Assembly: GCA_963702005.1 (NCBI GenBank)
Contig: OY969696.1
Coordinates: 2,240,001-2,304,000 of the forward strand
Source: Candidatus Aminicenantes bacterium
Lineage (GTDB): Bacteria > Acidobacteriota > Aminicenantia > Aminicenantales > JAFGBC01
DNA: 64,000 nucleotides
Direction: 5' to 3'
Part shown: in pieces, positions 22,393-30,731 of the stretch
Position numbering within the stretch: position 1 is the stretch's first letter
Layout: every line of letters starts with the position of its first letter
Program-made: the position numbers and the translations under genes
The notes under the pieces: generated by a model
Told to the model about the DNA's origin: nothing
Seen by the model: the letters and a program-made list of their open reading frames with translations, nothing else
Database searches by the model: none

Positions 22393-24579
22393 ATGGCATC
22401 CGAAGAGCAGCTCGAAGGAACGGTCGAGGAGATCGTCTATTACAACCCCGATGACGGCTATACCGTCTGCCGGTTTGTGCCGGAGAGCGGAGAGTCCCTG
22501 ACCCTGGTCGGCCTGTTTCCGCCCCTTTCTCCCGGTGAAACTCTCAAGGTCAAGGGCGGCTGGGAGCTCAATCCCAAGTTCGGCCGGCAGTTTCGCGTTT
22601 CGTCCTTCAGCACGATTCTGCCCTCCTCCGTCAAGGGGATCGAGCGCTTCCTCGGATCCGGCCTCATCAAAGGGATCGGCCCCGTCCTGGCCCGCCGCAT
22701 CATCAAAGCCTTCGGACCGGGCACGATCGAAATCCTGTCCAAGGAACCGGGCCGGATGGCCGAGGTCCCGGGCGTGGGGCCGGCCAAGCTCAGGGAGATC
22801 AAGAAGTCCTGGGCCGAACACAAAGATATCCGCGACCTCATCATCTTCCTCCAGGAGCATGAAGTCTCGACGAGCCTCGCCACCAAGATCTACCGCCAGT
22901 ACGGCGAGCGTTCCTTCCAGGTCCTCCGCTCCAATCCCTACCAGCTCTGTCTTGATATCTGGGGGGTCGGGTTCAAGACGGCCGACCAAATCGCCCTCAA
23001 GCTCGGGACCGACCCGGCCTCGCCGGAGCGGGTCAAGGCCTTCATCCTCTACCTCCTCGAAAAGGACAACGAACAGGGCCATGTCTTCTCGATCAGGGAG
23101 GAGGTCGTCGCGTCCTGCGTCAAGGATCTGGGAGTCGGCGAGGATCTCGTCCGCCGCGCCCTGGACGGGCTGGAGGCCGAGCGACGGGTTGTGACCGAGC
23201 CGCTGGCCGCAGGGTCGGCCCTCTATCTTCCTTTCTTTTATCAAGCCCAGGAGGAGGTCGTCCGCATCCTCCATGATCTCGGCGGCCGGCCCTGCCCGGC
23301 TCCGGACTTCGACTTGGCGGCGGCCCTGGCCGAGGCCGAGCGGGACCTCGGCCTCACCTTCTCGCCGATGCAGAAGACGGCCGTCACGAGCGCCCTGGGA
23401 AAGAAGATCCTGGTCATCACGGGCGGACCGGGAACGGGCAAGACGACCATCATCAAAGCCGTCGTCGATATTTTCGGCCGCTGGGGGAAGACCGTCCTCC
23501 TGGCGGCGCCGACCGGCCGGGCCGCCAAGCGCCTGTCCGAGACGACCGGGGGAGAAGCTAAGACCATCCACCGCACCCTCGAGGTCCGGCCCAAGCAGGG
23601 CGACTTCCGCCGCAACGAGCGGAACCCTCTCAAGGGCGACGCCCTGATCGTGGACGAGTTCTCGATGGTCGACCTTTCCCTCCTTTACCACCTCCTGAAG
23701 GCCGTCCCGCCCTGGATGAGACTCGTCTTCGTCGGGGACCAGGACCAGCTCCCCTCGGTCGGCCCGGGCTGCCTCCTCAGAGACATCATAGACTCGGGCC
23801 GGGTCGAGGTCGTCCGCCTCGACGAGATCTTCCGCCAGGAGCGGGACAGCCTGATCGTCGTCAACGCCCACCGCATCAACCAGGGCCAGGGCCTGATCTA
23901 TCCGCCGCGCGGGGCCGAGGACGCCGACTTCTACTTCATCAGGCGCGATGACGAGGCCAAGGCCTTTTCGACCATCCTCCAAGTCTGCGGCTGGCGCATC
24001 CCGAGCCGCTTCGGCCTGAGCCCGCTCTCCACCCAGATCCAGGTCATCAGTCCGATGTACAAGGGCCTGGTCGGCGTCGACAACCTCAACCGGGAACTCC
24101 AGGCGCGGCTCAACCGCCGCGAGGACGGCCTCAAGGTCGGGACCCGGGAGTTCCGGCTCCGGGACAAGGTCATGCAGGTCCGGAACGACTACGAGAAAGA
24201 GGTCTTCAACGGCGACATCGGCGTCGTCGCCCATATCGACCGCTCCCGCTATCGGCTCATCGTCGAGTACGACGGCCGGGCCGTGCCCTACGAGAAGGAC
24301 GAGCTCAACGACCTCGTCCTGGCCTACGCCGTCTCGGTCCACAAGGCCCAGGGGAGCGAATACCAGGCCGTCGTCATGCCCCTCATGACCCAACACTTCA
24401 TCATGCTCCAGAGGAACCTGTTCTACACGGCCCTGACCCGGGCCAAGAAGCTCAGCATCATCGTCGGTTCCTTCAAGGCTCTCTACATCGCCATCAAGAA
24501 CGACAAGCCCGTCAAGCGGAACTGTCTGGTCAAGGACAAGCTCATCCGACTCGGGGGGGACGGCCTCTCCGGCGTTTGA
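22393..24579 (+). CDS. recD2: ATP-dependent RecD-like DNA helicase RecD2
   Basis: HhH N-terminal region, GGPGTGKT, APTGRAAKRL, DEFSM, GDQDQL, HKAQGSEY, YTALTRAK. Confidence 0.95.
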   Translation: MASEEQLEGTVEEIVYYNPDDGYTVCRFVPESGESLTLVGLFPPLSPGETLKVKGGWELNPKFGRQFRVSSFSTILPSSVKGIERFLGSGLIKGIGPVLARRIIKAFGPGTIEILSKEPGRMAEVPGVGPAKLREIKKSWAEHKDIRDLIIFLQEHEVSTSLATKIYRQYGERSFQVLRSNPYQLCLDIWGVGFKTADQIALKLGTDPASPERVKAFILYLLEKDNEQGHVFSIREEVVASCVKDLGVGEDLVRRALDGLEAERRVVTEPLAAGSALYLPFFYQAQEEVVRILHDLGGRPCPAPDFDLAAALAEAERDLGLTFSPMQKTAVTSALGKKILVITGGPGTGKTTIIKAVVDIFGRWGKTVLLAAPTGRAAKRLSETTGGEAKTIHRTLEVRPKQGDFRRNERNPLKGDALIVDEFSMVDLSLLYHLLKAVPPWMRLVFVGDQDQLPSVGPGCLLRDIIDSGRVEVVRLDEIFRQERDSLIVVNAHRINQGQGLIYPPRGAEDADFYFIRRDDEAKAFSTILQVCGWRIPSRFGLSPLSTQIQVISPMYKGLVGVDNLNRELQARLNRREDGLKVGTREFRLRDKVMQVRNDYEKEVFNGDIGVVAHIDRSRYRLIVEYDGRAVPYEKDELNDLVLAYAVSVHKAQGSEYQAVVMPLMTQHFIMLQRNLFYTALTRAKKLSIIVGSFKALYIAIKNDKPVKRNCLVKDKLIRLGGDGLSGV

Positions 24580-24605
24580 CATTATTTCCGCCTTTTACCT
24601 AAGAT
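24576..24605 (+). promoter_or_regulatory. Sigma70-type promoter of the SH3-M48-cyclase-MBL-MscS operon
   Basis: TTGACA (overlapping the recD2 stop)-18 nt-TAAGAT. Confidence 0.55.
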
Positions 24606-24620
24606 GGAGGAAAGACGATC

Positions 24621-25118
24621 ATGGAGGTTCCGATGAGAAAGCCGCTCCGGCCGGCCGCGGTCGCCGTCATCTGTGCCCTCTGCGCCGTCCTGCTCCTTGC
24701 CGAGACCGTCGTGGTCAAGATCCAGTCGACGGTGCTCAGGAAGGAGCCCAAGTTCTATGCCCAGACCCTGGTCAACCTGAAGGCCGGGGAGAAGCTCGAG
24801 AAGCTCGCCTCCCAGGAAGGCTGGCTCCAGGTCCGGACCGCCAGCGGGGCGGTCGGCTGGGTCCATGGAAGCGCCGTCGAATCGAAATCGTTCGGCCTGC
24901 TGGCCATGGACAAGTCGATGAAGACCCAAGCCTCTGCGAGCGAGGTCGCCCTGGCCGGGAAAGGATTCAACAAGCAGGTCGAGGAGAGCTACCGGGCCAA
25001 GCACGGAAACGTCTCCTTCGTCTGGGTCGACAAAATGGTCCAGATTAAGGTCCCCGCCGCGGAGCTCGAGAAATTCCTCAAGAGCGGGAAGCTCGGAGAG
25101 TTCGGAGGCGGCAAGTGA
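24621..25118 (+). CDS. Secreted bacterial SH3-domain protein
   Basis: Signal-peptide-like N-terminus; SH3b pattern (LRKEP...GEKL...GWLQVRTASGAVGWV); alternative start 24633. Confidence 0.8.
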   Translation: MEVPMRKPLRPAAVAVICALCAVLLLAETVVVKIQSTVLRKEPKFYAQTLVNLKAGEKLEKLASQEGWLQVRTASGAVGWVHGSAVESKSFGLLAMDKSMKTQASASEVALAGKGFNKQVEESYRAKHGNVSFVWVDKMVQIKVPAAELEKFLKSGKLGEFGGGK

Positions 25119-26008
25119 AAGCGCCCCGGCTCTTAATCCCCGGCTTAGCCGTCGGCCTCGCCCTCCTGGCCGCCTCTGCTTGCGAGACGCTCCAGAAGGG
25201 CGCCGACGTCTTCGACGCCCAGTCCTCCAAGGCCCGGTCGGTGGCCAAAACCGCCAAGCAGATCCGCTCGACCTTCGCCGACATCAGCGAAGAGGAGGAG
25301 TACTACATCGGGCGGTCCGTGGCCGCCTTGATCCTCTCCCGCTACGACGTTTACAACAACGAAGGGCTGACCCGCTACCTCAATGCGGTCGGAAGCGCCG
25401 TGGCCGCGTATTCGGACCGGCCCGAGACCTATGCCGGCTATCACTTCCTGGCCCTGGACACGGACGAGGTCAACGCCCTGGCCGCCCCGAGCGGATTCAT
25501 CTTCCTGACCCGCGGCCTCCTCAAGCGCTGTAAGGACGAGGACACCCTGGCCGACATCATCGCCCACGAGATCGGCCACGTCTGCGCCAAGCACGGCCTC
25601 CAGTCCATCCAGAAATCGCGCCTGATCGACGCTTTCAAGCTTCTCGGCGAGCAGGCCGCCCAGAAGTACGGCCCCCAGGAGCTGGCCCAGCTGACGGGCA
25701 TCTTCGAAAACGTCCTGGGCGACATCAGCGAGAAGCTCATCGAGCGCGGCTACGACCGCAAGTACGAGTATGAGGCCGATGAGCTGGCCGCCAAGTTCGC
25801 GGCCCGGATGCGCTACGACGGCAAAGGCCTGGTCGATTTCCTCGAGACCATGGTCCAGAGCACCGCGGGCGGGGCGGACAAAGGCTGGTTCAAGACCCAT
25901 CCCAGCCCTCAGGACCGGATCGACCGCCTCCAGGGCGTGTTCAAGACCTTCAAGCGTGAAGCGGCCCGGACCGAGCGATTCAAGGCGAGCTTTAAAGGGT
26001 TGAAGTGA
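25115..26008 (+). CDS. M48-family zinc metallopeptidase lipoprotein
   Basis: Lipobox LAASAC, VNALAAPSG, HEIGH, EYEAD, THPSPQDRI. Confidence 0.9.
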   Translation: MKAPRLLIPGLAVGLALLAASACETLQKGADVFDAQSSKARSVAKTAKQIRSTFADISEEEEYYIGRSVAALILSRYDVYNNEGLTRYLNAVGSAVAAYSDRPETYAGYHFLALDTDEVNALAAPSGFIFLTRGLLKRCKDEDTLADIIAHEIGHVCAKHGLQSIQKSRLIDAFKLLGEQAAQKYGPQELAQLTGIFENVLGDISEKLIERGYDRKYEYEADELAAKFAARMRYDGKGLVDFLETMVQSTAGGADKGWFKTHPSPQDRIDRLQGVFKTFKREAARTERFKASFKGLK

Positions 26009-28089
26009 GGATCGGAAGGGGCGTCCTGGTCGGGCTGGCGGCCGGCCTGGCCGCGCTGCTTATCCTCGGCCTCCAGGTCTTCAGGCCCCTCGAATGGAAA
26101 TCCTGGGATGCACGGCTGCGGCTCCTGGCCGCCCCGGCCGCCGCGGACAAAGACATCGCCATTATCCTCATCGACCAAGCGAGCCTCGACGTCTATGAGA
26201 AGGAACAATCCCTTTCCTGGCCCTGGCCGCGCCAGATGTATTCGGCCCTTTTGCGTTTCCTCAAAACAGGCGGCGCCCGGGCCGTCGCCTTCGACCTGGT
26301 CCTGAGCGAGGCGTCCTATATGGGCGTCGAGGATGATGCGGACCTGGCCCGGGCCATGAAGGAATCGGGGAACGTCTTGCTGGCTTTCTTCCTGAGCGGC
26401 GAGGCGAGCGACTCCGACCAGTCCTCCTCGGACCTCCTGAAACGATTCGCCCTCCAGGGCGAGTCGGCGCCGGCCCGAGCCGTCCTGCCGCTCGCTTCGG
26501 CCGCGCTCCCGGTCGACGCCCTTTTAGCAGCCGCGGCCGGAGCGGGCAACGTCCGTTTCAATCCTGATGCGGACCAAATCTACCGCCGCATGCCGCTCGC
26601 ATTCTCGGTCCAGGGGCGGGTCTATCCTTCGCTTCCCCTCGCCATTTCACGGTATCTGACGAGAGGACCTGCCCTGGATGCCGTTCCGATCGATCCTTCG
26701 GGCCAGTTTGTCATCCGCTATCATGGCCCGGCCGGAACCTATAAGACCTACTCGATCGGGTCCCTCATCAACTCCCAAGCGCAGATCGAGGCCGGCCGGG
26801 AGCCCCAGGTCAAGCCTTCGGAATTCGCGGGCAAGGTCGTCCTGCTCGGGACGGGAGCGCCCGGCTTGTTCGACCTCCACCCCGCGCCGTTTTCCACGGT
26901 CTATCCCGGTGTCGAGATCAACGCGACGGTCGTCGACAGCCTCATCCATCGGAATTTCGTAAGGCTGCCCGCCCGTGGTGCGGTCGCGGCGCTCATCCTC
27001 GGATTGGCGCTGGCGACCGCCGCCGGCATTTCGCTCCTCAGGAAGGTCTGGGCCCAGGCCATCCTCTTCGTCCTGGCGGCCGCGCTCCCGGTCGCCGCGG
27101 CGCTCCTCGCTTTCCGGAAAGGCTTCTGGCTTGAATTCGTCGCGCCCGAGCTCGCGGTCCTGCTGAGCTTCCTGGGGGCCGCCCTCCTCAACTACAGCGT
27201 CGAGGGACGCCAGCGGCGTTTCATCAAGAACGCCTTTCGATATTACCTGAGTCCCGAGGTCATCGAACGGGTTCTCGAAAACCCGTCCCTTCTCCGGCTG
27301 GGCGGGGAGAAGCGCGAGATCACGTCCTTCTTCTCGGATATTGCCGGGTTCACGGCCGTTGCCGAAGGGCTGGCGCCCGACCGGCTGGTCGCTCTCCTCA
27401 ACGAATACTTGACCGAAATGACGGACATCATCCTCGGCTCGGGAGGAACCCTCGATAAGTACGTGGGCGATGCCATCGTCGCCTTCTGGAATGCGCCCCT
27501 CGACCAACCCGATCACGCCCTGCGGGCCTGCCGGGCGGCCTTGCTCTGCCGGTCCCGGCTCGCGTCTCTCCAGCCCTCCTTCGGGGAGCACTACGGGCAC
27601 GGAATCGCGATGCGGATCGGGCTCAATTCCGGGCCGGCCGTCGTCGGGAATATGGGATCGTCCCGCCGCTTCGACTTCACGGCCATGGGCGATACCGTCA
27701 ACCTGGCCTCCCGCCTCGAGGGGGCCTGCAAGCCGTTCGGAATCTCCCTTCTTGTCGGCGAAGAGACTTATCTCCGCGTCCGGGGAACGCTGGCGGCGCG
27801 CGAAGTCGACCTCATCCGCGTCGTCGGAAAGACGCGGCCCGTCCGCGCCTACGAGATTCTCGGCGAAAGCGGCGCGGAGACGGCCGGCGAGGCGGAAAGG
27901 CTCGTGGCCTATCAAACGGCCCTCGAGGCCTACCGCGCCCGGGATTGGCAGAAAGCGGCCGCCTTGTTCTCGGTTCCGGCCAAGGCCGGGGATCCGGTCT
28001 CCGGCCTCTACCTGCGTCGCTGCCGGGAGCTTGCGGCCGCGCCGCCCCCTGTTGACTGGGATGGGGTCTTTGAGCTTAAAATCAAATAA
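26005..28089 (+). CDS. CHASE2-domain class III adenylate cyclase
   Basis: CHASE2 (WPWPR, AVAFDLVL, YPGVEINA), three TM helices, cyclase motifs FSDIAGFT, DKYVGDA, DFTAMGDTVNLASRLEG, C-terminal TPR-like tail. Confidence 0.93.
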   Translation: MRIGRGVLVGLAAGLAALLILGLQVFRPLEWKSWDARLRLLAAPAAADKDIAIILIDQASLDVYEKEQSLSWPWPRQMYSALLRFLKTGGARAVAFDLVLSEASYMGVEDDADLARAMKESGNVLLAFFLSGEASDSDQSSSDLLKRFALQGESAPARAVLPLASAALPVDALLAAAAGAGNVRFNPDADQIYRRMPLAFSVQGRVYPSLPLAISRYLTRGPALDAVPIDPSGQFVIRYHGPAGTYKTYSIGSLINSQAQIEAGREPQVKPSEFAGKVVLLGTGAPGLFDLHPAPFSTVYPGVEINATVVDSLIHRNFVRLPARGAVAALILGLALATAAGISLLRKVWAQAILFVLAAALPVAAALLAFRKGFWLEFVAPELAVLLSFLGAALLNYSVEGRQRRFIKNAFRYYLSPEVIERVLENPSLLRLGGEKREITSFFSDIAGFTAVAEGLAPDRLVALLNEYLTEMTDIILGSGGTLDKYVGDAIVAFWNAPLDQPDHALRACRAALLCRSRLASLQPSFGEHYGHGIAMRIGLNSGPAVVGNMGSSRRFDFTAMGDTVNLASRLEGACKPFGISLLVGEETYLRVRGTLAAREVDLIRVVGKTRPVRAYEILGESGAETAGEAERLVAYQTALEAYRARDWQKAAALFSVPAKAGDPVSGLYLRRCRELAAAPPPVDWDGVFELKIK

Positions 28090-28100
28090 GGATTTCTTCC

Positions 28101-28916
28101 ATGGACATTGAATTCTGGGGCGTCAGAGGAACGGTGCCGGTGTCGTCGCCGCAGACGATGAAATACGGCGGCGCGACCATCTGCGCGTCGGTCCGCTCGG
28201 CCGGCGGGGACATCATCATCATCGATGCCGGGACGGGGTTCAAGCCTCTCGGCGACAGCCTGGTCCGAGAACGGAAGGGACCGCTCAAGCTCCATCTCCT
28301 GCTGACGCATTTCCATCTCGACCACATCATGGGATTCCCGTTCTTCGCCCCCCTCTGGGACAAGGACGTCGAACTCATCATCCACGCTCCCGCGCCGACG
28401 GCGGACACGGAAGGAGCTCTGGCCGGGCTCATGGGAGGACGCTATTTCCCCCTCAGCCTCGCCAGCACGACCGCCGCCAAGTCCTTCCGGACCGTACCGG
28501 CGGGCTCGTTCGCCATCGGGGACTTCCGGGTCTCGGCCTGCCAGCTCCGCCATCCCCAAGGGAGCGTCGCCTACAAGATCGAGGAGGCGGTTCGCAAGAT
28601 CGTGTTCGCGACCGACACCGAGCATCCCGAGCTGGGGATCGACCAAAGACTGCGCGATTTCTGCCGGGGGGCGGATTTGCTCATCTACGACGCGACCTTC
28701 ACGCCCGAGGAATACGCGGCGGGGAAGAAGGGTTGGGGCCACAGTACCTGGCAGGCGGGGGCTAAGCTCGCCAAAGAGGCGGGCGTCAAAAAGCTGCTGC
28801 TGTCTCATCTCAATCCCGATCACAGCGACGCCCGAGTCGATATGATCGTCGGCCTCGCCAAATGGGAATTCCCCTCCGTCGAGGCCGTCCGGTCCGGCTG
28901 GAGAAGGACCTTGTGA
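28101..28916 (+). CDS. MBL-fold metallo-hydrolase (RNase Z / cyclic-nucleotide phosphodiesterase-like)
   Basis: FWGVRGT, DAGTG, THFHLDH, HPQG, TDTEH, WGHST, LSHLNP. Confidence 0.88.
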   Translation: MDIEFWGVRGTVPVSSPQTMKYGGATICASVRSAGGDIIIIDAGTGFKPLGDSLVRERKGPLKLHLLLTHFHLDHIMGFPFFAPLWDKDVELIIHAPAPTADTEGALAGLMGGRYFPLSLASTTAAKSFRTVPAGSFAIGDFRVSACQLRHPQGSVAYKIEEAVRKIVFATDTEHPELGIDQRLRDFCRGADLLIYDATFTPEEYAAGKKGWGHSTWQAGAKLAKEAGVKKLLLSHLNPDHSDARVDMIVGLAKWEFPSVEAVRSGWRRTL

Positions 28917-30520
28917 TGGCCGCTCCCGTCGGGATCCTCGACGCCTTTCTCGCCCTTGCCGGCCTGTCCGTTGCGACCGGCCTGACCGCGCTCCTCCAGC
29001 GGCTGAGCGGCCGCGCCGGTTCGGACGGCCCGAGTCCCGCGAAGATCTTTCTCGGCCGGCTGGCCATGCCGATGTCGTTCCTGACCGTCGTCCTCCTCCT
29101 CAGGTTCGGCCCCTATCGTGAGGCGGTCAGCGCCGAGGCCCGGTTCGGGACCTATCTCGGGGCGGCTTTGGTTTTCTTCGCCGCGATTCTCTTTATTCAC
29201 TTCTGCGACGCCGTCGTCCTCGCCTGGTACGCCCGGAAAGGGCGGTCCTACCCGTTGCCGCGCGTCCTGCGCGGGTTTATCCTGGCCATCCTTTATATCG
29301 CGGTCTTCTTGTCCATCCTGAAAGGGGTCTTGGGGATCAACCTGACGCCCTTCCTGGCGACCTCGGCCGTCCTGACCATGATTCTCGGCCTCGCCCTTCA
29401 GGGCGTCCTGAGCAATATCCTGGCCGGGATGTCCCTTCATTTCACAAGGTCTTTTTCGCGGGGGGACTGGGTCAAGGTCGGCGACCAGGAGGGGATCGTG
29501 GTCGATACCAACTGGCGGGAAACGCGGCTCCTTGACCGACAATCCAACATCGTCGTTCTTCCCAACAACACGGTTGCCTCGGCGACGATCGTCAATTTCA
29601 GCCAGCCCGGCGCCAAGACGGCCCTCAGCCTTATGCTCAAGGTCAGCTTCCGGGCCCCGGCTGCCCTCGTCCAAGATTGTCTCCTGGCGGCGGCCCGCGA
29701 GGTCGACGGCGTCGTCGCCGAGCCCGCTCCCTTGGCCTACCTCCTAAGCTACGACGAGACGGGCGTTTCCTACCAGTTGAAGTTCTGGGTCGAGGATTAT
29801 GCCCGGAAGGATCCGATCACGACCGAAGTGGCCAAAAGAATCTGGTATAAGTTCCGGCGGCAGGGGATCGAGGTCCCGATCGCCCTGGACGACAAAGTCG
29901 CCGACGTCGTCCGCAACCTCCGCGCGGAGGACCGCCGTCAAAGCGATGAGGCGGACCGGCTTCGGAATTTCGCCGACCTGGTCCGCTCCTCCTTCCTGAG
30001 ACGGACCGAAGGGAGGGGCGCCGGCCGGCTCCTCGTCCCGGAGAGGGAGGTTCGGGAGCTGGCCGGACTCGTCCGGCGCAAGATTTACGGCCGGGGCGAG
30101 GTTTTATTCCGGCAGGGGGAAAGGGGAGAGAGCTGTTTCATCGTGGCCGAGGGCGGGATCCGCGGCGAGATCGAAACCGAGGAAAACGGGAAGCGCTACA
30201 AATCCGAATTCCGCGTTGAGCCGGGCGGCCTGTTCGGCGAGATGTCCCTCTTCACCGGGATGCCGCGTACGGCGTCCGGCGTTGTCGAAAAAGACACCGA
30301 GCTCATCGAGATCGGGGCCGAAGCCTTCGGCCGGCTCCTCAGCCGCAACCCTCGGCTCGCGGACGCGATTGCGGCCATAGTCAGCGAACGCAACCGCAAG
30401 AATCAGGAGACTCTAAGCAAGATCAAGGATCTCTCGGCCCAGGACATCGCGCGAAGCTGCAGCAAGAAGTCGATCCTGGAGCGGCTCAAGGGCCTCATCC
30501 GCCTGGTCAAACGATACTAA
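28916..30520 (+). CDS. MscS-family mechanosensitive channel with C-terminal cyclic-nucleotide-binding domain
   Basis: TM helices, GLALQGVLSNILAG, GDWVKVG, PNN; phosphate-binding cassette FGEMSLFTGMPRTAS; TGATG overlap with the upstream gene. Confidence 0.92.
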   Translation: MAAPVGILDAFLALAGLSVATGLTALLQRLSGRAGSDGPSPAKIFLGRLAMPMSFLTVVLLLRFGPYREAVSAEARFGTYLGAALVFFAAILFIHFCDAVVLAWYARKGRSYPLPRVLRGFILAILYIAVFLSILKGVLGINLTPFLATSAVLTMILGLALQGVLSNILAGMSLHFTRSFSRGDWVKVGDQEGIVVDTNWRETRLLDRQSNIVVLPNNTVASATIVNFSQPGAKTALSLMLKVSFRAPAALVQDCLLAAAREVDGVVAEPAPLAYLLSYDETGVSYQLKFWVEDYARKDPITTEVAKRIWYKFRRQGIEVPIALDDKVADVVRNLRAEDRRQSDEADRLRNFADLVRSSFLRRTEGRGAGRLLVPEREVRELAGLVRRKIYGRGEVLFRQGERGESCFIVAEGGIRGEIETEENGKRYKSEFRVEPGGLFGEMSLFTGMPRTASGVVEKDTELIEIGAEAFGRLLSRNPRLADAIAAIVSERNRKNQETLSKIKDLSAQDIARSCSKKSILERLKGLIRLVKRY

Positions 30521-30541
30521 TAGGAGGGCTTTTTAAGAAAT

Positions 30542-30597
30542 AATTCTGGGGACACACGACTTAATTCGGAAGAATTAAGTCGTGTGTCCCCAGAATT
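30542..30597. repeat. Family-A palindromic repeat (REP/REPIN-like), copy 1
   Basis: AATTCTGGGGACACACGACTTAATTC-GGAA-GAATTAAGTCGTGTGTCCCCAGAATT perfect hairpin. Confidence 0.9.
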
Positions 30598-30653: not shown

Positions 30654-30731
30654 AGCCCTGTAGCTCAGTTTGGATAGAGCAAGGGATTCCTAATCCCTGT
30701 GTCGCCGGTTCGAGTCCGGCCAGGGCTACCA
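30654..30731 (+). tRNA. tRNA-Arg (anticodon CCT)
   Basis: Acceptor stem AGCCCTG/CAGGGCT, D arm GCTC...GAGC, anticodon loop TTCCTAA, GGTTCGAGTCC, encoded CCA. Confidence 0.96.

Follow-up and report, generated by a model that had tools for sequence, protein, structure and literature searches.

Here we describe a five-gene operon in a 64,000-nucleotide stretch of the genome of a Candidatus Aminicenantes bacterium (order Aminicenantales, phylum Acidobacteriota; assembly GCA_963702005.1, contig OY969696.1, positions 2,240,001 to 2,304,000), hereafter the window, whose own numbering is used below. The genes encode an SH3b-domain protein with a conserved C-terminal tail, an M48 zinc metalloprotease, a class III cyclase with a CHASE2 sensor domain, an enzyme of the metallo-β-lactamase (MBL) fold and an MscS-type channel with a cyclic nucleotide monophosphate (cNMP)-binding domain. 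We think it likely that they form one dedicated cyclic AMP (cAMP) signalling cassette, with an extracytoplasmic input, a writer, an MBL-fold eraser and a channel reader. In the proposed circuit, the exported SH3b protein with its tail, the M48 lipoprotein and the CHASE2 domain would jointly set cyclase activity, and the cytoplasmic class III domain would make cAMP. The channel would respond to cAMP through its cNMP-binding domain, while the MBL enzyme, of an atypical class-II type, would hydrolyse cAMP and reset the loop. A single functional unit is well supported because the genes co-occur and are lost together in 41 genomes of the order, share a gene order there, and recur in rearranged form across other lineages. 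The first-pass annotation of this DNA had already proposed one local signalling loop; its unity gains support from synteny, co-loss and rearranged recurrence, and the class it gave the MBL enzyme is corrected below.

The open reading frame (ORF) listing places the five co-oriented genes on the plus strand (Table 1), and the junctions between them were read from the sequence. The SH3b and M48 genes share a GTGA overlap at 25115 (AAGTGAAAG), as do the M48 and cyclase genes at 26005 (AAGTGAGG). Between the TAA of the cyclase gene and the ATG of the MBL gene at 28101 lies an 11-nt gap, and the MBL and channel genes overlap in a TGATG at 28914-28918. A GGAGGA stands 8 nt upstream of the SH3b ATG at 24621. 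Both this layout and the five domain identities had been claimed before; the ORFs and junctions bear out the former, and each of the latter was matched in Pfam above its curated cut-off. An alternative in-frame ATG at 28862 would give a channel ORF of 552 amino acids (28862-30520). We rejected it as the start since the orthologs align from near the ATG at 28916, which also provides the TGATG coupling.

Table 1. Features of the cassette and its surroundings in the window.
Feature	Coordinates	Strand	Properties
RecD2-type helicase	22393-24579		upstream of cassette
Promoter-like site	24576..24605	+	TTGACA-18-TAAGAT; 10/12 consensus matches; in the 41-nt gap after RecD2 stop
SH3b protein, 165 aa	24621..25118	+	hydrophobic N-terminus; SH3_3 residues 39-86, 35.7 bits (Pfam)
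M48 zinc metalloprotease, 297 aa	25115..26008	+	PF01435 Peptidase_M48, 106.8 bits; HEIGH motif
Receptor cyclase, 694 aa	26005..28089	+	N-terminal hydrophobic helix, CHASE2 ~14-338, hydrophobic segments, class III domain 436-610
MBL-fold phosphodiesterase (proposed), 271 aa	28101..28916	+	PF12706 Lactamase_B_2, 67.5 bits; THFHLDH
bCNG-type channel, 534 aa	28916..30520	+	MscS beta-domain, C-terminal domain, cNMP-binding 390-478
Inverted repeat	30546..30593	.	perfect 22 bp, 4-nt loop, at operon end
tRNA-Arg(CCT)	30654-30731		ARAGORN; downstream of cassette

Conservation was followed in 41 genomes of the order, that of the window (G000) and 40 relatives, which cover nine families and 23 genera. 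Full-length orthologs of the cyclase (E below 1e-100) are present in 33 of them. By tblastn with the window proteins, 31 ortholog loci were compared, with the too fragmented G034 left out. All five genes stand in the order of the window in 23 of these loci, down to 39-50% identity; six others are cut by contig ends, and two (G023 and G029) are long enough and have no adjacent channel gene. The first-pass annotation had named the presence of MBL and MscS genes next to the cyclase in other genomes as a check on its proposal, and the 23 loci leave that proposal standing.

Gain and loss follow the same pattern. The 33 genomes with the cyclase contain the SH3b gene in all cases, the M48 ortholog in 32, the MBL gene in 32 and the channel in 30, the misses being M48 in G008 (a fragmented assembly), MBL in G039 (at a contig end) and the channel in G010, G029 and G034. 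The eight genomes without the cyclase (G007, G012, G013, G015, G019, G021, G031 and G036; each 92-96% complete) have no SH3b gene, no M48 ortholog and no channel, and one of them has the MBL gene. They belong to six genera in three families, and two of these genera (g3 and g15) also include cassette-bearing genomes. The gene for the RecD2-type helicase that precedes the cassette in the window is kept in seven of the eight. In G015 and G021 (loci L217 and L220) it is followed directly by the tRNA-Arg(CCT) that follows the cassette in the window, which identifies the cassette as a clean presence/absence block bounded by RecD2 and the tRNA gene.

The five genes could in principle be neighbours by descent only, with no function in common. 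RecD2 lies upstream in 24 of the 31 loci and a gene for an S-adenosylmethionine (SAM) hydroxide adenosyltransferase (SAM_HAT) is syntenic in most of them, so a conserved neighbourhood within the order carries little weight when taken alone. However, the five are lost together where RecD2 is kept, their start and stop codons overlap, and rearranged sets of them are found in further families and in a second phylum. We consider an association by descent alone extremely improbable.

The rearranged recurrence was found by a search for CHASE2 in 301 genomes of the phylum, which gave matches in 117 (a tally that includes G089 and G192). The 80 best-scoring places, two of which overlap, yielded 79 distinct loci, and these were scanned with hidden Markov models (HMMs) derived from the order; rows from G000, the genomes of the same order, G089 and G192, as well as a single match at the start of a contig (G273), were left out. 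CHASE2 is fused to a cyclase, in any context, in 57 of the 79 and stands without a detected cyclase in 22. The cyclase is joined by both an M48 gene and an MscS-cNMP channel in 17 loci from 17 genomes and seven families, 12 of them co-directional in the order cyclase-M48-channel and five in other orientations. Eight loci have the cyclase and M48 only; four of these read SH3-M48-cyclase, all in the sister order within the same class. Two have the cyclase and channel only, and in 25 the cyclase is alone. An MBL gene lies near the cyclase in four (L152, L183, L189 and L203), and in 3 of the 57 cyclase loci the sole partner is a free-standing cNMP-binding ORF. The domains of nine representative loci, four of them triads, were borne out by Pfam. 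A gene of the Rce1-like CAAX protease family borders the triad in two loci (L152 8773-9474 and L138 7726-8613). In another acidobacterial family (L203 7977-9047), the MBL gene is set apart from the MscS-cNMP channel by a DDE_3 insertion sequence transposase.

A part of the cassette is also found outside the phylum. A search of 151 genomes of Myxococcota with the M48 alignment gave 30 loci. In the best 8 of the 30, an SH3-tail ORF lies just upstream of M48 in every case, and in six of the eight a cyclase ends just before it (cyclase-SH3-M48). The other 22 loci, with weaker and mostly longer M48 proteins, have neither an SH3-tail nor a cyclase neighbour.

The sensor of the receptor cyclase is recognized well (PF05226, residues 14-338, 182.6 bits against a cut-off of 26.3) and, as read from the sequence, is flanked by hydrophobic segments. 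The catalytic domain (Guanylate_cyc, PF00211) scores 68.2 bits against a cut-off of 21.9, and its nearest solved relative is CyaB of Pseudomonas aeruginosa (3r5g, E 2.1e-34). Six residues are invariant in 25 orthologs: Asp445, Lys485, Asp489, Thr559, Asn566 and Arg570. Asp445 and Asp489 are presumably the metal-binding aspartates, and Asn566 and Arg570 the transition-state Asn/Arg pair; all four have their counterparts in the alignment to CyaB. The aspartates, the Lys of DKYVGD and the N..SR motif had all been noted in the first pass, and all are conserved in this set. The specificity assigned to the cyclase at that stage rested on the Lys. That part stands, since Lys485 (DKYVGD) aligns with the Lys of CyaB; to be added is the second specificity residue, a Thr as in CyaB (Thr559, in FDFTAMGD). 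The columns of Lys485 and Thr559 are occupied by Glu and Gly in the guanylate cyclase Cya2 (2w01). The window cyclase and CyaB therefore agree in having Lys and Thr at the positions that specify the substrate, a comparison limited to the catalytic domain, and the product of the window cyclase is predicted to be cAMP. The sensor of CyaB is reportedly MASE2, in place of the CHASE2 of the window cyclase.

The genome of the window is a single contig of 4,309,361 bases, 94% complete, and the operon cyclase is the single PF00211 match in its 4.31 Mb; no class I cyclase was found there. PF00027 has two matches, the operon channel and a Crp/Fnr-type regulator (cNMP_binding plus HTH_Crp_2) whose cassette, read from the sequence, is GEAVALAGGSFPIYAQAV and lacks the Arg. 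The operon thus holds the only class III cyclase and the only Arg-bearing cNMP-binding domain of the genome, and the term 'self-contained' given to the circuit earlier fits. No RNase Z reaching the curated cut-off was found anywhere in this genome. A second CHASE2 protein, of 445 amino acids and with no detected cyclase domain, is encoded outside the window (G000:C1:4157646-4158980) and adjoins a 292-amino-acid protein with a signal-like N-terminus.

In the MBL-fold enzyme, Thr69, His70, His72, Asp74 and His75 of the THFHLDH motif are invariant in 42 sequences, and His151, Asp172, His214 and His236 are also invariant among the orthologs; the full HxHxDH set described earlier is confirmed. Its placement among the class II phosphodiesterases with an MBL fold holds for the fold and fails for the classical class. 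PF02112, the classical class II family, has no match in the window protein at E <= 10, and on three homologs it gave one match of 11.8 bits (E 0.13). Instead, the protein fits the atypical class-II cNMP phosphodiesterases, to judge from its motif and family. In the portion of PMC9293780 available, this group (Rv1339 of Mycobacterium tuberculosis, YhfI of Bacillus subtilis and CpdA of Corynebacterium glutamicum) is described by a [T/S]HxHxDH motif on PF12706 and by kinship to RNase Z. The window enzyme shares PF12706, THxHxDH, a length of ~270 amino acids and the RNase Z kinship. YhfI prefers cAMP and cGMP, according to the accessible part of PMC9117128. In contrast to Rv1339, YhfI and CpdA, the window enzyme, itself ~20% identical to YhfI, belongs to a separate subfamily often found fused to PilZ, STAS, REC, GAF, histidine kinase, cyclase or cNMP_binding domains. 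With the NCBIfam model of cyclic nucleotide-degrading phosphodiesterases (NF041851) it scores 52.2 bits against a cut-off of 400, and by this measure it is a distant relative of those enzymes, not an equivalog. We predict that it hydrolyses cAMP.

The MBL enzyme may instead be a phosphodiesterase in the manner of RNase Z or PhnP, with RNA ends, 2',3'-cyclic phosphates or a different nucleotide, for example cyclic di-GMP (c-di-GMP), as its substrate; its presence in the operon would then have some other cause. RNase Z is its best match in NCBIfam (TIGR02651, 74.9 bits in two stretches), among sequences in the PDB (7e-8, followed by YhfI 6kns with 5e-6 and BA1088 1zkp) and in Foldseek, and homologs are annotated as 'phosphoribosyl 1,2-cyclic phosphodiesterase' or 'ribonuclease BN'. 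The Foldseek ranking for the confident AlphaFold2 model (predicted local distance difference test, pLDDT, 90.5) runs RNase Z, ZipD, YhfI, BA1088 and PhnP, with Apyc1 (7u2r) at rank 44. On the other side, the RNase Z score is far under the cut-off of 293 bits, and YhfI has the best target-normalised TM-score (0.83). Moreover, the MBL gene disappears with the cassette in seven of the eight genomes, suggesting that it is not a housekeeping gene. The only genome to keep it (G007; L281, G007:C45:6500-18500) has it after a divergent FHA-GAF-cyclase, a 203-amino-acid cNMP-binding protein and an AI-2E transporter. Judged by its domains, this is another neighbourhood with a writer, a reader and an eraser, made up of different parts.

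Homologs of the MBL enzyme carry evidence in both directions. An exhaustive search gave 1,247 representatives at E below 1e-30, and 28 longer ones were scanned for further domains: 18 have signalling domains and 10 have nothing extra. PilZ occurs in seven of the 28, which would point to c-di-GMP rather than cAMP; STAS occurs in three, REC in three, histidine kinase in two, GAF in two and PAS in one. There is one fusion to a cyclase (P0218, MBL-REC-cyclase), two proteins are MBL-cNMP_binding-GGDEF fusions (P0220 and P0222), and an MBL-cNMP_binding fusion is found in locus L088. In a survey anchored on the MBL gene, which covered ~8 kb around 80 homologs of 36-53% identity from many phyla with narrow, order-derived HMMs, three loci are Aminicenantes-like with the cassette kept, six others (L054, L057, L065, L088, L091 and L095) show a neighbour or fusion of the cyclase, cNMP-binding or MscS kind, and 71 have no cyclase, cNMP-binding or MscS gene. 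Because these 71 show no link to cyclases, we dropped the idea that the whole subfamily is cAMP-specific. Independent settings in which the gene does adjoin a cyclase or a cNMP-binding protein are L189, L203, L152, L183, L054, L057, L095 and G007; in L054, from Bryobacteraceae, it faces an MscS-cNMP channel as well as a cyclase of another kind (a propeller-cyclase). The family is thus signalling-associated, with a cAMP role that is well supported by gene context for the clade of the cassette and not for the family as a whole, and a substrate other than cAMP for the window enzyme seems quite improbable.

Three further observations concern the MBL gene. A cNMP-binding Ser/Thr kinase is encoded beside the CHASE2 cyclase in one locus (L183 5965-7287) and beside an MBL homolog in another (L095 8720-10333); in these places the same writer and eraser genes are combined with readers of another kind. 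The match to the MBL gene of G023 (G023:C1:523622-524415) is split into two overlapping pieces, probably by a frameshift. An Aminicenantes-type cyclase-MBL-channel arrangement, at 49-53% identity, is found on two contigs under the label 'uncultured Eubacteriales' (L044 and L048), and the bins are possibly mislabelled.

The channel is matched by MS_channel_2nd (PF00924, 61.2 bits), MS_channel_3rd (PF21082, 34.4 bits) and cNMP_binding (PF00027, 66.2 bits). Its phosphate-binding cassette, FGEMSLFTGMPRTAS, aligns with those of the cAMP-binding Crp (4ev0) and protein kinase A regulatory-subunit structures. The GE...PRTA form recorded for it in the first pass is present, and 27 channels, with identities as low as 23%, all share Gly441, Glu442, Arg451 and Ala453. 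The channel has the same build, an MscS core followed by a C-terminal cNMP-binding domain, as the cyclic nucleotide-gated channels of bacteria (bCNG channels) described in the available part of a 2026 review (PMC13591265), which cites the bCNG work of Caldwell 2010 and Malcolm 2012. That part of the review presents bCNG channels as mostly cyanobacterial, with no structure and a physiological role that is not understood. Unlike these, the window channel is from Acidobacteriota and belongs to a conserved operon with a cyclase, a protease and a phosphodiesterase. In 151 genomes of cyanobacteria we found 30 channel loci, five of them (one weak) with a cyclase directly upstream. Two channel genes of the order deserve a remark. 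The copy in G011 (G011:C27:61568-62992, L018) is only 38% identical, has four in-frame TGA codons and is probably decaying. That of G023 has moved to 1.97 Mb (L282), where a CAAX-type M48 gene (Peptidase_M48_N plus M48) follows.

The input side would be formed by the products of the first two genes together with CHASE2. The SH3b protein is predicted to be exported from its hydrophobic N-terminus. The N-terminus of the M48 protein ends in ...LLAASAC, with a Cys near the N-terminus kept in the alignment consensus, and the protein is probably a lipoprotein. Its HExxH zinc site (His151, Glu152 and His155) is invariant in 25 orthologs. In the SH3b protein, the C-terminal half is more conserved than the SH3 domain in the ortholog alignment. 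The conserved tail comprises residues about 88-160, and in 24 aligned orthologs Glu108, Ala110, Ala112, Gly115, Phe116, Gln119, Val120, Glu121, Val136, Asp137, Phe152, Gly156 and Leu158 are invariant. One gene for the SH3-tail protein (G037:C143:21161-21646, L027) contains an in-frame TAG, and a sequencing error or a pseudogene is possible.

The M48 proteins of the phylum-wide triad loci are longer, 370-385 amino acids, with a C-terminal extension of ~110 amino acids. Neither this extension nor the SH3 tail has a Pfam or NCBIfam family. The motifs of the extension, in the order G(F)GL ... SAxV..SG.ARG ... V.V....(D/E)(L).AFKK.GGL, are paralleled in the tail by F.L ... SASEVALAGKGFN ... I.V....(L)E.FLK.GKLG. 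Profile-profile comparison with hhalign gave P 2.6e-4 and a probability of 42% with tails of the order alone, and P 5.9e-5, a probability of 65% and 61 aligned columns when tails of the sister order and of Myxococcota were added. This resemblance, new in the present analysis, suggests that the tail and the extension may be a common module, carried either by the SH3b protein or by the protease. Such a module would be a link of the Rosetta-stone type between two exported proteins, SH3 and M48. The predicted structure of the SH3-tail protein has low confidence (pLDDT 56.6, predicted TM-score 0.25), and the best Protein Atlas scores for tail residues 88-165, 0.82 and 0.75, are under the meaningful level.

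The SH3b protein and the protease may act on CHASE2, the input step may be proteolytic cleavage of either CHASE2 or the tail module, and the state of the envelope or peptidoglycan may be the cue; these steps, and the direction of the cAMP effect on the channel, are what we infer. SH3b domains often bind peptidoglycan. In two Myxococcota loci (L253 1720-2982 and L254 180-1436), the gene after the cyclase-SH3-M48 set encodes a YkuD L,D-transpeptidase; a third (L252) has a beta-helix protein in place of YkuD. The L,D-transpeptidase neighbours and the binding habit of SH3b domains are hints, no more, of a connection to the cell wall.

A different role for the two exported proteins has to be weighed, in which the cyclase, channel and MBL enzyme form the cAMP circuit and M48 and SH3b are envelope quality-control or biogenesis factors of the BepA or LoiP kind, responsible for maturing or turning over the CHASE2 receptor or the channel. 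The nearest curated models of the M48 protein are indeed those of BepA and LoiP, the M48 gene lies between cyclase and channel in the phylum-wide arrangement, and a sensing role of SH3b and M48 is our inference only. The protein is nevertheless far below the equivalog cut-offs of the NCBIfam models (BepA 64 against 570 bits, LoiP 62 against 365, HtpX at most 32 against at least 245). The pair of M48 and CHASE2 cyclase persists with no channel adjacent, in the 8 of 79 loci and in Myxococcota, suggesting that M48 tracks the sensor and not the channel. A separate BepA-like paralog of ~490 amino acids and ~30% identity stays when the cassette is lost, being kept in six of the eight genomes without the cyclase; in G013 and G019 there is no M48 match at E 1e-20. 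For a protease that is dedicated to the cassette and comes with a conserved tail module, regulation is also a better fit than general quality control. We judge the quality-control role unlikely.

A more specific version of the signalling cassette can be formulated, tentatively and as a rather unlikely extension: CHASE2 receptors may be switched by a dedicated protease, with M48 acting on the tail module, whether SH3b-borne or M48-borne. The carrier of the tail would be a separate SH3b protein in Aminicenantia and Myxococcota and the C-terminus of M48 in other Acidobacteriota. What CHASE2 reads would be the tail once processed or released, or else the loss of the tail, and damage to the envelope or peptidoglycan would lead to a cAMP pulse and to gating of the MscS-type channel. 

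For the input of the cassette as first proposed, the closest precedent is in Sinorhizobium meliloti. There, in the accessible part of PMC13001267, the CHASE2 cyclases CyaD1, CyaD2 and CyaK work along with NsrA, a protein of the outer membrane, and the regulator Clr, and their signal is described as being of protein nature (plant uL2). Both systems combine CHASE2 with a class III cyclase, and the S. meliloti cyclases depend for their activity on a separate envelope protein. A protein cue processed by a protease is plausible in view of this protein-nature signal, sensed via an envelope protein. The systems differ in the partner, which is the beta-barrel NsrA in that account and an M48 protease with an SH3-tail protein in the window. 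They also differ in the reader, a CRP-type transcription factor there and a channel here, with a phosphodiesterase in the same operon.

We also compared the cassette with Pycsar-type abortive-infection defence, in which a phage-triggered cyclic nucleotide would activate a lethal cNMP-binding membrane effector. The cyclase domain matches the PycC models of PADLOC (best 103 bits), the cNMP-binding domain matches Pycsar effector models weakly (27 bits), the cassette is polymorphic in presence and absence, and the anti-Pycsar protein Apyc1 has the MBL fold in common with the window enzyme. However, the PADLOC matches are limited to the generic catalytic and cNMP-binding domains, with none to SH3b, M48 or MBL. 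The sensor is an extracytoplasmic CHASE2 domain, and the Lys/Thr pair of the cyclase is of the purine type. Furthermore, the cassette occupies one chromosomal site across nine families at 50-85% identity and its core is common to two phyla, unlike a defence island. A defence function of this type is very improbable.

Several points weigh against a dedicated cAMP cassette as we propose it, in addition to the synteny of RecD2 and SAM_HAT, the higher score of the MBL enzyme with RNase Z (75 bits) than with the cNMP-phosphodiesterase model (52 bits), the RNase Z top fold match, the PilZ fusions and the 71 survey loci discussed above. The proposal is drawn from the sequences and gene context of the five proteins. 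In G023 the channel gene lies apart from the cassette, in G029 it was not found, and in G011 it has the four in-frame TGA codons. The RTA form of the phosphate-binding cassette does not discriminate between cAMP and cGMP. One CYTH protein encoded elsewhere in the genome of the window may be a second source of cAMP. No M48 or MBL gene lies within ~1.5 kb of the 30 cyanobacterial channel loci, nor of four full-length bCNG-like loci in four genomes of other phyla.

Our search of open-access papers and bioRxiv, without supplements, found no published description of this gene combination, in agreement with the first-pass statement that no characterised system has the full layout. Built from known kinds of parts and conserved, the circuit is apparently undescribed. 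The S. meliloti pathway is one studied case of CHASE2 sensing (PMC13001267, as far as the available part goes). The cassette ties one CHASE2 cyclase to one bCNG-type channel, together with a dedicated protease, a small partner protein and a dedicated phosphodiesterase. Since no other class III cyclase or canonical cAMP receptor is apparent in the genome, it could serve as a minimal, genetically tractable model, in which five genes placed in a heterologous host give access to every arrow of the circuit. The tail module that moves between the SH3 protein and the protease provides a specific hypothesis for the input step. If CHASE2 is indeed switched by the protease, CHASE2 would thereby gain its first ligand logic, and bCNG channels their first physiological role.

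The cassette is bordered by sites that may control its transcription, in line with the promoter in front and hairpin behind that had been noted earlier. The promoter-like site, a candidate promoter by its likeness to the consensus, is one of four such sites in the region, against 0.6 +/- 0.7 in shuffled sequences in the consensus scan. The perfect hairpin at the operon end has no clean T-run behind it, and terminator-like sites are not enriched in the region scan (6 against 5.5 +/- 2.1 in shuffles); it is a possible terminator. Beyond these sites, Pfam identifies the SAM hydroxide adenosyltransferase gene upstream of the cassette and a GH114 glycosidase gene downstream.

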